DNA of 45,226 nucleotides, from the sequence record SRR20825006_727. One strand, 5' to 3'. How positions within the stretch are numbered: position 1 is the first letter of the stretch; every line of letters starts with the position of its first letter. Below the pieces are notes generated by a model. The model was not told the DNA's origin. It saw only the letters and a program-made list of their open reading frames with translations, and made no database searches. Positions 26,749-32,115 of the stretch are shown piece after piece. The position numbers and the translations under genes are program-made.

Positions 26749-27153
26749 TTATTCAACTCGGTAGGTGATCTCAACAGCATCATTAAGCGTTGCTGAAACA
26801 GAACAGTATTTTTCGAGAACCAATTCAATGATTCCGCTTACTTGGCTGCGATCAATCTCTGGAGGCAGATCAAATACGAGACAAATTGACTGAAATGGAG
26901 AGGGCGTGGAAGCCACTCTCTCCGCTTCGATCAGAATCGATATATTCTCAACGTGAATTCGTTTTTTACTTAGAATATTGATCACATCGATTGCGGCGCA
27001 TCCTGCCAAAGATCCTGCGAGCAATTCCATTGGACGAAATCCTTTGTTCTTACCACCAATTGTCTCACTTGCGTCGATGAAGCAACGAGAACCACCTTCA
27101 TTAGTGAGTTCAAAAACAAATGGTGTTTCAATTCGATCTAGTTTCAACTTCAT
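26749..27153 (-). CDS. OsmC/YhfA-family protein
   Basis: GFRPMELLAGSLAGCAAIDV and EKYCSVS two-Cys motifs. Start ATG 27153 overlaps the upstream stop (ATGA). Confidence 0.85.
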   Translation of the reverse strand: MKLKLDRIETPFVFELTNEGGSRCFIDASETIGGKNKGFRPMELLAGSLAGCAAIDVINILSKKRIHVENISILIEAERVASTPSPFQSICLVFDLPPEIDRSQVSGIIELVLEKYCSVSATLNDAVEITYRVE

Positions 27154-27566
27154 CTTGTTATTTTTTGTGATGCAATTCCAAAAAGTAATGCTCCAGAAAG
27201 AGCTCCAAACAGTCCAAATAATCCAATTTCCCATTCAAGACCAACCAAAACAAACAGCGGTCCACTGCATGCTCCAGAAATCGCCCATCCAACCCCGAAG
27301 ATGATTCCGCCTAATACATTTGACGTCCAATTTAGTTGTTTTCTCTCCGTTTTGATCTCCTTTCCGAAAACTGATTTCATCTTTCCCTTTTTTAACAGCC
27401 AAATGCTCACCATTGCCGTAAAAATGGCGGAAAACAACAATCCAAACATGTGAAAGGACTCAAAATGAAACATTTCTTGAATTCTAAACCAAGAAAATGC
27501 TTCACTTAAGATCAGAATCAATCCAAAATAGATTCCCAATAGCAAGCTAATAATAAATCGCAGCAT
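27150..27566 (-). CDS. YeeE/YedE-family sulfur-compound transporter half (DUF6691-like)
   Basis: WFRIQEMFHFESFHMFG and GGIIFGVGWAISGACSGP. Confidence 0.85.
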   Translation of the reverse strand: MLRFIISLLLGIYFGLILILSEAFSWFRIQEMFHFESFHMFGLLFSAIFTAMVSIWLLKKGKMKSVFGKEIKTERKQLNWTSNVLGGIIFGVGWAISGACSGPLFVLVGLEWEIGLFGLFGALSGALLFGIASQKITR

Positions 27567-27569
27567 TCT

Positions 27570-28067
27570 TTAAAAAATTAATGTGATGAGAAAATTTGAC
27601 GTAATCCATCCTCCGACAAAGAATGAAACTGTAGCTACAATTGAGCTTATAGCGAATTGAGAAACACCCATTATGCAATGTCCCGCTGTACATCCATTTG
27701 CATAGCGCGCACCGAATCCAACTAAAACGCCACCCAAGAAAAACTGTCCAGCGTTCTTAAATTCATATACGGTTGTTGAAATAAACTTCCATCCTTCGCT
27801 ACTCTCAGGACTAACAACTGCGGGTTTCCAAAAAGGAAAAAACCAAGAGACGAGGAAACCTGCTGCGATCAACCCAATACAAAAATGAAGCTGCCAACTG
27901 TCTTTAACGCGGTCATAGTTGAAATAAGGAACTTTTTTGAATGGTCCACTCAATAAGTAGCGATAAGAAGAGGAGATTCCAAACTGTTTTTCTCTCAAAA
28001 TCAATAAAAGCGGGACGATCAAACCGATAAGTGGCCCAGCAAAATACCAAGGAATTATAGGGTTCAT
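27570..28067 (-). CDS. YeeE/YedE-family sulfur-compound transporter half
   Basis: PWYFAGPLIG, FGISSS and GGVLVGFGARYANGCTAGHCIMG. Confidence 0.88.
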   Translation of the reverse strand: MNPIIPWYFAGPLIGLIVPLLLILREKQFGISSSYRYLLSGPFKKVPYFNYDRVKDSWQLHFCIGLIAAGFLVSWFFPFWKPAVVSPESSEGWKFISTTVYEFKNAGQFFLGGVLVGFGARYANGCTAGHCIMGVSQFAISSIVATVSFFVGGWITSNFLITLIF

Positions 28068-29314
28068 GACACACTTGTTTGAAGAAATGAGTAATCGCTT
28101 TCAACCAACGCGTTTGATGGGTCAACTCGGATAAAATCATCTGGTAAAAGTACAATTGACACTTCTGGACGATCATTGAAATCGATTTGCTTCAATTCAT
28201 TAAATCTCACCCAACCCGTGCGATAACTGTATGACTCACTGATAAATGTTCCATCCACTTTCTGGAAATCAAGAATCGATAAATTATCCAACTCTGGAGA
28301 ACCCAAATAAATACGCACAAGGACATCGTCAGTTAAAGTCAATTCCTGGTCTCCATCCGACTTTTTATACTCATACAAATAATCAAATTTTAGCGCCGAA
28401 ATATCCGATAAAACGGCACTCGCGGTTGGATAACTTCCAGCTCCTTTACCTAAAAACAGTTGCTTGTCGGCAAACAATCCTTCTATAATCACCGCGTTGA
28501 ATTCATTGTTCACATCAAACGCAAAATGTGTGGACTCCACAAAAAATGGAGCTACGAACGCCACCACTTTATCATCCAGTTTTACAGCCTTCGCGAGTAA
28601 CTTTATTCGATATCCTTTTTCCTGTGCAAAATCAATGGCATTTTGAGAAATCGTTCGTATTCCGCAATTAAAAATGGCATCAGGCTCCACTGCCAAGCCA
28701 AACGCATGCTTGAGTAAAATCGTTAACTTGAATTTTGCATCGAATCCGTCCACATCTAAGGTTGGATCTAATTCCGCAAACCCGAGTTCCTGAGCTTTTT
28801 GGAGTGCTTCATCGTAACTCACACCAAAATTGGACTGCGTGAGAATGTAATTGGTAGTTCCGTTTACAATTCCTTCTACAGACGTGAGTGAATCGTTGTT
28901 GTAATATTCCTCCAGATTTCTCAAAATTGGTATTGCTCCAGCAACTGCACCTTCGTACAACAATGAAGCTCCCGTTTTCTGAGCCACCTCAAGAAGTTCG
29001 GGTAAACGCTCTGCGATCAGTTTTTTGTTCGCCGAAACGACATCTTTCCCAAGTTCAAGCGCTCGTTTTACAATCGCAAAGGCTTCATTTGAATCATTGA
29101 TTAATTCAACAACCACGTTTATTTCCTCGTCATTCAAAATCTCATTTACATCAAAGGAAAAATGATCCAATGAAAGCGAGCGTTTTTTATTTTGATCCTT
29201 CACTACAATTCTTTTTATCGTAGCGTCGATTAATTTTGACTGATGCAATACTTCATAAAGTCCAGACCCTACGCAGCCAAATCCAATCAATCCTATTTTT
29301 AATTTTCTGTTCAT
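28064..29314 (-). CDS. hom: Homoserine dehydrogenase
   Basis: GLIGFGCVGSG Rossmann motif, VVSANK, GIVNGTTNYIL, AELDPTLDVDGFD and GKGAGSYPTASAV. Confidence 0.93.
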   Translation of the reverse strand: MNRKLKIGLIGFGCVGSGLYEVLHQSKLIDATIKRIVVKDQNKKRSLSLDHFSFDVNEILNDEEINVVVELINDSNEAFAIVKRALELGKDVVSANKKLIAERLPELLEVAQKTGASLLYEGAVAGAIPILRNLEEYYNNDSLTSVEGIVNGTTNYILTQSNFGVSYDEALQKAQELGFAELDPTLDVDGFDAKFKLTILLKHAFGLAVEPDAIFNCGIRTISQNAIDFAQEKGYRIKLLAKAVKLDDKVVAFVAPFFVESTHFAFDVNNEFNAVIIEGLFADKQLFLGKGAGSYPTASAVLSDISALKFDYLYEYKKSDGDQELTLTDDVLVRIYLGSPELDNLSILDFQKVDGTFISESYSYRTGWVRFNELKQIDFNDRPEVSIVLLPDDFIRVDPSNALVESDYSFLQTSVS

Positions 29315-29326
29315 CTTTTTAATTTA

Positions 29327-30382
29327 TTAAGCCACAGCCACTTTTTTGAACTGTGTTAATTTGTATCGTTCTACTTTTTCTGTCAGAAACTCGTCCAAAA
29401 TCATCTCCAGTTGGGCTGTTTCGATTAAGAATCCATCGTGTCCAAAATCCGACGTTATTTGAGCAAACCCAGCATCTGGAATCCATTCCGACAAGAATAT
29501 TTGTTCGTTCGGAGGGAAGAGTTGGTCAGAATCTATTGCGACAACAAGCGTGCGAGCCTCTACCAATCCAAGTGCTTCTTCCAACGACTTTCGATTCCGT
29601 CCTGCATGATGCGCATCCATTGCATTCAACAGTGTTACGTAAGAGTAAGCGTTAAATCGATTCGCTAATTTTTGCCCTTGGTATTTCTGATAACCGCTGG
29701 CGCTAAAATTGATCGTTTTTTCCTCACTTTGATCCGTTTGCGTCGCAACATAACCAGCATAAGAACGATAACTCAACATTGCCAGACTTCTCGCAGCTAC
29801 TAATCCTGCTTTTCCGCCATTAATGACATCATTTCCAAAAGTCACATCCGCCGCAATTGCCAGTCGTTGGCTCTCATTGAATGCAATTCCGTAGGCCGAA
29901 TGACGTGCGTTCGTTGCAATTAAGCACAGCTGATCTATTACTTTTGGTTGAGAAATAGCCCATTCCAATGCTTGTTGTCCACCCAATGATGCGCCAATCA
30001 GTAAAGAAATTCGGTCGATTCTGAGTCGTTTCCGAACCTCATCAAAAAGTTGCGCTTGATCTCGTGTGGTAACTAACGGGAATTTATCCAGCAAAGGACG
30101 TTTATTTTCCTCTGGACTCGTCGGTCCCGTTGTCCCATAGCACGATCCTAAGGCATTCACACAGATAATGAAATACTCGTTTGGATCAAACAATTTCGCG
30201 ACTCCAAATAATCCATTCCACCAGTCAAAAACATCGCTGTTTGCCGTGAGCGCATGACACACCCAAATCACGTTTGATTTTAGAGCATTTAATGTTCCAT
30301 AGGAAGAGAATGTTGCTTCAACGTTCGGGAGAATTTCTCCAGATTCCAACTCAAAGGATCCTATTTTCAAGGTATTTTTCAT
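29327..30382 (-). CDS. metX: Homoserine O-acetyltransferase
   Basis: CHALTAN, GSCYGTTGP, GASLGG nucleophile, DQLFP and GHDGFL triad. Confidence 0.92.
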   Translation of the reverse strand: MKNTLKIGSFELESGEILPNVEATFSSYGTLNALKSNVIWVCHALTANSDVFDWWNGLFGVAKLFDPNEYFIICVNALGSCYGTTGPTSPEENKRPLLDKFPLVTTRDQAQLFDEVRKRLRIDRISLLIGASLGGQQALEWAISQPKVIDQLCLIATNARHSAYGIAFNESQRLAIAADVTFGNDVINGGKAGLVAARSLAMLSYRSYAGYVATQTDQSEEKTINFSASGYQKYQGQKLANRFNAYSYVTLLNAMDAHHAGRNRKSLEEALGLVEARTLVVAIDSDQLFPPNEQIFLSEWIPDAGFAQITSDFGHDGFLIETAQLEMILDEFLTEKVERYKLTQFKKVAVA

Positions 30383-30396
30383 TGTTCTGAATTTTT

Positions 30397-31731
<1,335 letters not shown>

Positions 31732-31752
31732 TTAAATTGAAAAATAAAGGAG

Positions 31753-31796
31753 GAATACGCCAAAAGGCATCGGGCCCTGATGTCCGAGGCATATTC
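31753..31796 (-). terminator. Putative attenuator (3:4) hairpin between the leader ORF and metY
   Basis: Transcript reads GAAUAUGCC-UC-GGACAUC-AGGGCCC-GAUGCC-UUUU-GGCGUAUUC then CUCCUUUAUUUUU. The U-tract is offset by 4 nt, so an intrinsic terminator is uncertain. Confidence 0.55.
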
Positions 31797-31819
31797 AAGA
31801 ATACTGACTAATCAGAAAA

Positions 31820-31939
31820 TTAGCAGCACATACAGCAACAGCACATGGCTACTGTGTAGGAAGTAAAATAAGGGATACCAAAATTGTTCTGATTAAAATC
31901 AGAAACGTGTTGTGTGTAAGATGTTTTGTTTGCGTTCAT
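31820..31939 (-). CDS. Met/Cys-rich leader peptide, 39 aa: MNANKTSYTQHVSDFNQNNFGIPYFTSYTVAMCCCCMCC
   Basis: Read directly from the minus strand; ends ATG TGC TGT TGC TGT ATG TGC TGC TAA. Lies between the SAM riboswitch and metY and is below the ORF-track size cutoff. Confidence 0.8.
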   Translation of the reverse strand: MNANKTSYTQHVSDFNQNNFGIPYFTSYTVAMCCCCMCC

Positions 31940-31947
31940 CACAATTC

Positions 31948-32074
31948 ATTTATATTCTCCCACCATTGGGATCAGGAATTGGCACCGGTTTTCCAATACT
32001 AACGTGTTTCGTTAGCACTTAAAGTTGGTTGCCAGAGGGTCTCAGAGCCTGTCTCTAACCTCTTCTGTATAAAT
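31948..32074 (-). ncRNA. SAM-I (S-box) riboswitch aptamer
   Basis: P1 AUUUAUA/UAUAAAU; P2 GAGG..AGAG-ACAGG-CUCU..CCUC; conserved GGCAACC...GGUGCCAAUUCC; P3 extension AGUGCUAACG/CGUUAGUAUU; P4 UCCCA/UGGGA; pseudoknot CAGG/CCUG. Located upstream of the met operon. Confidence 0.9.
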
Positions 32075-32107
32075 CACAACACTGCTCGATTGCAGCTAAT
32101 GATGCCA

Positions 32108-32115
32108 CAAATATC
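32108..32115 (-). promoter_or_regulatory. Putative -7 promoter element of the met operon
   Basis: GATATTTG (one mismatch to TAnnTTTG) with TTG 21 nt upstream, about 33 nt before P1. Confidence 0.4.

Follow-up and report, generated by a model that had tools for sequence, protein, structure and literature searches.

A stretch of DNA of 45,226 nucleotides (nt) from sequence record SRR20825006_727, referred to below in its entirety as the window, was found to carry on its minus strand a SAM-I (S-box) riboswitch aptamer, of the class that binds S-adenosylmethionine (SAM). The aptamer is followed after 8 nt by the start codon of a short leader open reading frame (ORF), which ends in a run of cysteine (Cys) and methionine (Met) codons and lies upstream of metY. 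The pairing of aptamer and Cys/Met ORF is confirmed; it is strongly conserved, and more so than chance would allow. It is proposed that the two form a composite leader of fused sensors in which the leader ORF would serve as the expression platform of the aptamer, a model drawn from comparative sequence analysis and given a probability of about 0.5 as a whole.

In the proposed mechanism the first sensor would be the aptamer, whose all-A/U P1 3' strand would double as an A-rich initiation element at positions -15 to -9 of the leader, and the second would be the C-terminal run of Cys/Met codons. With SAM bound, P1 would be locked and the ribosome kept off a start codon which lacks a Shine-Dalgarno sequence and lies 8 nt away, so that the leader would stay untranslated and transcription would stop before metY, either at a hairpin at 31796-31753 or through Rho. 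At low SAM, P1 would open and the leader would be translated, and read-through would occur only if ribosomes lingered on the Cys/Met codons when charged tRNA-Cys or tRNA-Met was scarce. The ribosome would in this way take the role that the antiterminator helix has in classical S-box leaders.

Conservation of the aptamer and the Cys/Met leader ORF

The Rfam SAM-I model (RF00162) matched the window at 32075-31947 (minus strand) with 58.7 bits against a gathering score of 44.4 (E-value 3.5e-11). The match is untruncated (model positions 1-108) and comprises helices P1 to P4, with a 34-nt insertion in P3. The SAM-I call of the initial annotation, for which this same Rfam check had been proposed, is therefore upheld with a full-length match above the gathering score. 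The two strands of P1 lie at 32075-32068 (5') and 31954-31947 (3', UAUAAAUG, minus strand), pairing through seven A-U pairs with an outermost G-G apposition. The 3' strand occupies -15 to -8 of the leader ATG at 31939, and the earlier placement of UAUAAAU (31954-31948) at -15 to -9 of this ATG was found to be exact. By analogy with the classical S-box, the aptamer would be expected to switch expression off with SAM.

The leader ORF (31820..31939, minus strand) has 39 codons followed by TAA (31822-31820) and encodes the peptide MNANKTSYTQHVSDFNQNNFGIPYFTSYTVAMCCCCMCC. Its putative regulatory tail, codons 32-39 (31823..31846, minus strand), reads AUG UGC UGU UGC UGU AUG UGC UGC and adjoins the stop codon, giving the peptide the C-terminus MCCCCMCC.

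Conservation was assessed in 80 public loci containing the nearest MetY relatives (71-80% identity), all of them in records labelled as Bacteroidota or as of Bacteroidota lineage. A SAM-I aptamer was identified by Rfam upstream of metY in 74 of them; none was found at the Rfam cut-off in L011, L022, L028 and L032, and L057 and L068 had too little upstream DNA to be judged. With the window counted, 66 of 75 aptamer-bearing loci have a Cys-tailed ORF beside the aptamer, defined as an ATG-initiated ORF of 25-60 codons with at least three Cys among its last 14 codons. The initial annotation had proposed a survey of the distance from SAM-I aptamers to small Met/Cys-rich ORFs, and among these 66 Cys-tailed loci the distance proved nearly constant, being 7-11 nt from the aptamer end to the first ATG in 57 (8 nt in 31 loci, 10 in 11, 9 in 8, 11 in 4 and 7 in 3), while another in-frame ATG is found at 8-11 nt in five of the nine outliers. 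This spacing spans records labelled Flavobacteriales, Cytophagales, Sphingobacteriales, Chitinophagales and Saprospiraceae. An ATG-initiated ORF of 10-90 codons occurs at that place in just 2 of 48 non-composite SAM-I loci.

The composition of the tails differs sharply from that of the ORF bodies. Across the 66 loci Cys accounts for 46% and Met for 11% of the last 12 codons, compared with 1.7% and 1.6% in the body, and both Cys codons are used (TGT 231 times, TGC 168). A reading of the TGY run as a mere RNA motif, and not as a series of codons, was ruled out by its frame: when the loci with at least three TGY triplets in the run (n = 58) were compared with an ATG at +5 to +14, the run was in frame and uninterrupted in 56 and out of frame in none, with the stop codon 0-6 codons further on.

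The remainder of the peptide is unconserved between families and varies from 25 to 60 amino acids in total length, the Cys/Met tail alone being kept, which is what would be expected of a sensory leader and not of a functional protein. This bears on the suggestion that the sign of the response is reversed, or that the tail is no sensor at all and acts as a slow patch, as a signal of sufficiency or as part of a functional Cys-rich peptide (in metal or redox chemistry) placed under SAM control. Cys-rich peptides can bind metals, and in the predicted folds of three loci (L003, L006, L064) the terminator-like hairpin beyond the leader forms only once a ribosome occupies the stop or the final Cys codon and not in naked RNA, as a reversed sign would have it. 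Against this stand the unconserved peptide body, the enrichment of Met codons, which are cognate to the product of the operon, and the existence of SAM-less versions with textbook attenuator anatomy (described below), and the suggestion is considered very improbable.

Beside the aptamer, several further features were noted. The sequence GATATTTG at 32108-32115 (minus strand), about 33 nt upstream of the aptamer, resembles TAnnTTTG, the -7 promoter element of Bacteroidota; a sigma-70 scan around 32108-32115 called no promoter. Between the aptamer and the likely start of transcription is a small hairpin, GCUGCAAUCGAGCAGU (32081..32096, minus strand), which was reported as terminator-like by the consensus scan and, because it is upstream of the aptamer, is no expression platform. 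An 8-bp complementarity between the 5' flank of the aptamer (32082-32075) and leader codons 9-11 (31914-31907) appears in the minimum-energy fold; as a long-range helix it is probably due to chance, being unconserved (mean z-score 0.09, below -2 in 2 of 66 loci). In six loci labelled Algoriphagus (L025, L051, L052, L053, L069, L071) an ORF is present at +10 from the aptamer in all six, without poly-Cys (e.g., MHSGFKPLFHSRFYKPDYKLSAIFMC).

P1 and the start of leader translation

The context of the leader ATG in the 57 loci is rich in adenine, with A at -3 in 35, at -6 in 45, at -11 in 40, at -12 in 45 and at -14 in 46, and this A-richness extends to the leader codons at +4 to +8. The upstream adenines of this context are the P1 3' strand itself, which in the window supplies A at -14, -12, -11 and -10. 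According to the accessible part of a study on Flavobacterium johnsoniae, A at -3, -6, -12 and -13 promotes initiation, replacement of -14 to -11 lowers reporter expression by 60–90%, and base pairing tends to be absent between -20 and +20 (PMC6847099). With the P1 3' strand at -15 to -8, the start of the leader abuts what would be a ligand-stabilised helix, as is expected of upstream ORFs (uORFs) controlled by riboswitches.

The composition of P1 itself is also distinctive. It contains no G-C pair in 50 of the 57 composites, unlike the Rfam consensus P1, which has c-g pairs, and such a helix would be expected to remain closed only when ligand is bound. An even sample of 61 genomes at class level gave 55 SAM-I matches, 7 of them composite; in it the P1 3' strand of the ordinary elements contains G in 48 of 48 cases (typically AGAUAAGU) and is G-free in 5 of the 7 composites.

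In classical S-box leaders the P1 3' strand pairs alternatively further downstream. No such partner was found in the window, nor was a complement to the P1 3' strand above chance in the next 150 nt across the 66 loci (mean z-score +0.35, below -2 in 2 of 66, window +0.15), in a test against mononucleotide shuffles which has modest sensitivity. As a positive control in the class-level sample, the same test flagged a downstream P1 partner in 13 of the 48 ordinary elements, with a mean duplex of -9.5 kcal/mol, and in none of the 7 composites. By eye, a downstream stretch that could pair with the P1 3' strand is visible in several ordinary elements (L169, L171, L172, L188, L189, L209 and others).

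The comparative data therefore favour a SAM-closed P1 that would gate translation of the leader, the SAM step being supplied by inference, and for the start of the leader the reading with most support is a wiring of the two sensors in series. The view of the initial annotation that the leader is the platform of the aptamer is in agreement with the fusion of the sensors, with the lack of an alternative-pairing platform and with the position of P1 on the A-rich -11 to -14 region; the antiterminator that its scheme implies was not predicted to be stable in the window, as discussed in the following section.

It may be asked whether the leader instead consists of two independent tandem switches, in which the aptamer would terminate by itself, either at a hairpin and U-run within the ORF (31906-31878) or through P1, and the close spacing would reflect compaction. 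Two-input control of a methionine gene is known from Bacillus clausii metE. Each module is found alone elsewhere, both as SAM-less Met/Cys leaders (L011, L022, L028) and, in Algoriphagus, as an aptamer with an ORF without poly-Cys; furthermore, a U-tract begins no more than 20 nt from P1 in 9 of the 48 ordinary SAM-I elements, as though P1 were the terminator stem. The in-ORF hairpin of the window (31886..31906, minus strand) is weak at -5.8 kcal/mol and is followed by CAAUUUUGG; folding suggests that it may cause pausing or act as a feeble terminator. Stronger equivalents are present in seven Hymenobacter loci (L027, L035, L041, L044, L048, L060, L062), where the ORF contains, at +39 to +87 from the aptamer, a hairpin of -17 to -24 kcal/mol joined to a U-tract, in a stretch that also encodes a conserved ..PMGFRV.. 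motif.

The spacing of 7-11 nt in 57 of 66 loci would not be predicted by compaction alone, however, and no antiterminator partner for P1 was found. The Hymenobacter hairpin folds whether the P1 3' strand is free or not, which speaks against its control by the aptamer through alternative pairing. Loading of a ribosome at the ATG would inevitably open P1, so that the sensors could not be independent. In a tandem NOR gate each sensor has a complete platform, whereas the sole candidate platform of the aptamer here is the start of the leader ORF. On balance the tandem explanation is regarded as improbable. The statement of the initial annotation that the aptamer has no terminator of its own is borne out in so far as the consensus scan called no terminator-like site on the minus strand between aptamer and metY and the P1 3' strand showed no unusual downstream pairing (z-score +0.15); it needs qualification in that the weak hairpin with CAAUUUUGG remains a candidate terminator or pause.

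The proposed attenuator half and its possible output

Downstream of the in-ORF hairpin the composite-leader model would place an attenuator. A hairpin at 31832..31855 (minus strand, -7.8 kcal/mol) has a 3' arm built of the Cys codons, and the next, at 31801..31829 (minus strand, -10.2 kcal/mol), has a 5' arm made of the last two Cys codons and the stop, corresponding to the 1:2 structure of the initial annotation. They are followed by the terminator-like hairpin at 31796-31753 (-16.6 kcal/mol), whose apex is CAGGGCCCG and which precedes the U-rich CUCCUUUAUUUUU at 31752-31740 (31740..31796 in all, minus strand). Its 5' arm begins 24 nt past the leader stop. It was not called by the consensus terminator scan despite its predicted stability. 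In the naked RNA of the window it is predicted with a probability of 0.95, which fits the expectation that no translation means no expression.

A post-leader hairpin with a GGGCCC apex (31770-31780 in the window) is present 35-48 nt past the stop in all six close relatives (the window and L001-L005), and this palindrome is conserved despite AT-rich genomes. A nucleotide alignment of the six closest leaders has a mean column identity of 59% and is alignable at P1, the Cys codons and GGGCCC alone, which makes it too poor for covariation analysis. Motifs resembling GGAAGGCCC were seen at a similar position in some Pedobacter loci, and in several GC-rich loci strong hairpins lie directly 5' of the UGUUGUUGC Cys run, where they may be ribosome-sensitive pauses or terminators.

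Attenuation by Met/Cys leaders in Bacteroidota looks real from the loci that have no aptamer. Two of these (L011 and L022) have two tandem Met/Cys leader ORFs each (e.g., MNHSTKNMCCMCCMKPRTPEVICCGMF), and a GC-rich stem with a long U run comes after every one of these ORFs. A third (L028) also has two such ORFs, each with a hairpin and U-run visible by eye, for which the terminator finder called none. These tandem leader regions lie upstream of metY at L011:2580-3000, L022:460-877 and L028:2580-3000. The 5' arm of the terminator begins 23-29 nt after the stop in L011 and L022, comparable to 24 nt in the window and +19 to +24 in L001, L003 and L004.

Several observations weigh against the composite-leader model, most of them in its attenuator half. 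In 30 of 57 loci P1 does not reach across the ATG (flanking duplex, mean z-score -0.17), so that steric hindrance, or removal of the A-rich element, would have to account for any block. The Hymenobacter in-ORF hairpin could be an aptamer-specific terminator; it could also be a ribosome-sensitive pause or terminator. In the window, the U-tract of the terminator-like hairpin begins 4 nt past the stem. The 1:2 and 3:4 scheme of the initial annotation implies a 2:3 antiterminator, and the candidate for it (GUAUUC-UUG-GAAUAU) is predicted to gain no stability by pairing in the window (0.0 kcal/mol) and was thus not confirmed. The terminator-like hairpin is moreover predicted with a probability of 0.95-0.99 at every simulated ribosome position, which leaves the ON state unexplained. 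Among 65 loci a stricter finder, used because TGTTGTTG Cys codons mimic U-tracts and confound a simple terminator scan, reported a post-leader hairpin with U-tract candidate in 40, and only 18 of 65 reach -10 kcal/mol or below, a count in which the hairpin of the window was set by hand. Intrinsic termination may for this reason not be the general output.

Equilibrium folding with a ribosome mask gave no consistent switch in 18 loci, with the classical pattern in L003, L006 and L064 alone. The same procedure showed no switch in four of four canonical SAM-less attenuators, and since it fails on these it says nothing either way. The attenuator half is thus weaker than the half formed by aptamer and start codon; what happens beyond the leader ORF, and in which direction the Cys/Met input acts, is inferred.

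The low number of convincing intrinsic terminators (18 of 65 loci) is in keeping with a variant in which the same SAM-closed P1 gate would have Rho-dependent termination as its output, and ribosomes held at the terminal Cys/Met run would shield the RNA, as in tnaC. The Cys run abuts the stop codon, and an untranslated leader would be C-rich and G-poor and so could load Rho: C exceeds G in the leader ORF body in 63 of 64 loci (median C/G 1.75, compared with 1.05 in metY), with 21% C and 9% G in the window. Rho has also been proposed for actinobacterial Cys leaders without terminators, in the portion of that paper that was available (PMC1262725). The window and its five closest relatives, on the other hand, have a conserved hairpin and U-rich tract at canonical attenuator spacing, and a G-poor, A/C-rich sequence would be needed equally by the unstructured initiation region of Bacteroidota, which renders the skew unspecific. 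The Rho variant is a serious rival, if a rather unlikely one.

Operon, distribution and comparison with known leaders

The operon presumed to be controlled by the composite leader (27150..31719, minus strand) was delimited by Pfam matches and ORF coordinates and consists of metY, metX, hom and transport pieces. It begins with metY at 31719-30397, an O-acetylhomoserine sulfhydrylase-like gene (PF01053, 1.6e-131), which is followed by an alpha/beta-hydrolase gene consistent with homoserine O-acetyltransferase at 30382-29327 (PF00561), by a homoserine dehydrogenase gene at 29314-28064 (PF00742 and PF03447) and by two YeeE/YedE-type sulfur-transport pieces at 28067-27570 and 27566-27150 (PF04143 twice), all on the minus strand. 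The aptamer therefore lies in the 5' leader of methionine-pathway genes (PF01053 enzyme, alpha/beta hydrolase and homoserine dehydrogenase), and the predicted gene content fits a methionine pathway by direct sulfhydrylation. The two terminal YeeE/YedE ORFs (165 and 138 amino acids) are each a partial family match, indicating a split gene or a two-piece transporter.

In five whole genomes from which metY loci had been taken, a Cys-tailed ORF follows 12 of 17 SAM-I matches, nine of these with ATG starts and three with GTG at +10; of the rest, three have none and two are unresolved. Seven composites (L083, L084, L086, L091, L092, L093, L097) precede genes other than metY, identified by Pfam (the gene of L083 not included) as a TonB-dependent receptor, an M14 peptidase, RimK-like ATP-grasp genes, an amino acid permease and another PF01053 enzyme. 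In L086 a second Cys-tailed ORF was noted 194 nt past the aptamer.

The composite is a minority form of SAM-I. A phylum-level even sample of 61 genomes, which includes high-GC lineages, some with Shine-Dalgarno-like sequences, had the composite in 0 of 29 best matches and 2 of 39 further ones (one doubtful), and with 7 of 55 at class level the idea that it is the general SAM-I platform of Bacteroidota was rejected. It is suggested, with somewhat less assurance than the model for the window itself, that a subset of Bacteroidia has swapped the RNA-only platform of SAM-I for the ribosome, and that the leader there would compute low SAM AND uncharged tRNA-Cys/Met for a regulon of metY operons, TonB-dependent receptors, peptidases and permeases.

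The initial annotation had not recognised the arrangement as a described architecture, and full-text literature searches likewise found no description of a Cys/Met leader ORF fused to a SAM-I aptamer, the closest precedents being riboswitch-controlled uORFs and poly-Cys leader ORFs. These full-text searches also returned no described case of Met/Cys leader attenuation in Bacteroidota, with the leader-peptide candidates in the supplement of PMC9723704 lying outside the search. As far as the available text of that study goes, the transcriptome of Flavobacterium psychrophilum gave "strong clues" for leader-peptide attenuation before amino acid operons (PMC9723704).

The leader shares with classical S-box leaders the same aptamer (RF00162) and a position upstream of methionine genes. 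The classical form has a terminator/antiterminator on the P1 3' strand; here none was found, P1 is almost purely A-U and a start codon lies 8 nt on. With the trp, his, leu and thr attenuators it has in common a short ORF with pathway codons, and a hairpin with a U-rich tract between this ORF and the first gene. It differs from them in having its Cys/Met codons at the very end of the ORF, in having the ORF start under a riboswitch helix and in that no stable antiterminator is predicted. The B. clausii metE leader has tandem SAM-I and adenosylcobalamin aptamers that form a NOR gate, each with its own terminator and independent of the other. Here too two signals would repress one methionine gene via one leader, but the first sensor is without a platform of its own and the second would be a ribosome on codons. 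Salmonella mgtA combines a Mg2+ riboswitch with the proline-sensing mgtL and so integrates a metabolite and an amino acid.

In Mycobacterium tuberculosis, vitamin B12 switches interact with translation of the metE/ppe2 uORFs, according to the accessible portion of the report (PMC11260477). These B12/uORF and mgtA leaders are alike in carrying a ligand-sensing RNA and a translated leader ORF on one 5' leader, with translation of the uORF modulating the gene that follows; they differ from the present case in ligand, phylum and geometry, and here a P1 strand appears to be the Shine-Dalgarno-less initiation element and is joined to a starvation codon run for the same pathway. Mycobacterial attenuators with leaderless polycysteine small ORFs (sORFs), predicted earlier (PMC1262725) and since reported (bioRxiv 10.1101/834739), have in the available sections of these papers a Cys run near the stop of a short ORF before sulfur-metabolism genes, with an output via ribosome stalling, the same as is proposed here. 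In those accounts the sORFs are leaderless, have no riboswitch and unmask a downstream ribosome-binding site, whereas the present leader is ~160 nt long with an aptamer, and the predicted fold leaves the start of metY single-stranded, offering no masked site of this type. The SAM-II leader of Sinorhizobium meliloti metA, as outlined in the part of the paper that was available, lets SAM control initiation and has a terminator between two AUGs (PMC9373788); in that outline it differs in its aptamer class, in Shine-Dalgarno sequestration, in having no sensory codon run and in that AUG1 is unused.

Taken together, a single mRNA leader may read both SAM and the supply of sulfur amino acids before methionine synthesis is turned on. 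Bacteroidota lack Shine-Dalgarno pairing and riboswitch control in this phylum is poorly understood; the conserved P1-to-start-codon design would, if true, offer a concrete expression platform there. It would also represent a natural metabolite sensor and a tRNA-charging sensor placed in series within one leader. The loci described here further point to Met/Cys leader-peptide attenuation in Bacteroidota, and the composite leader would define a co-regulated set of genes for the acquisition of sulfur amino acids.

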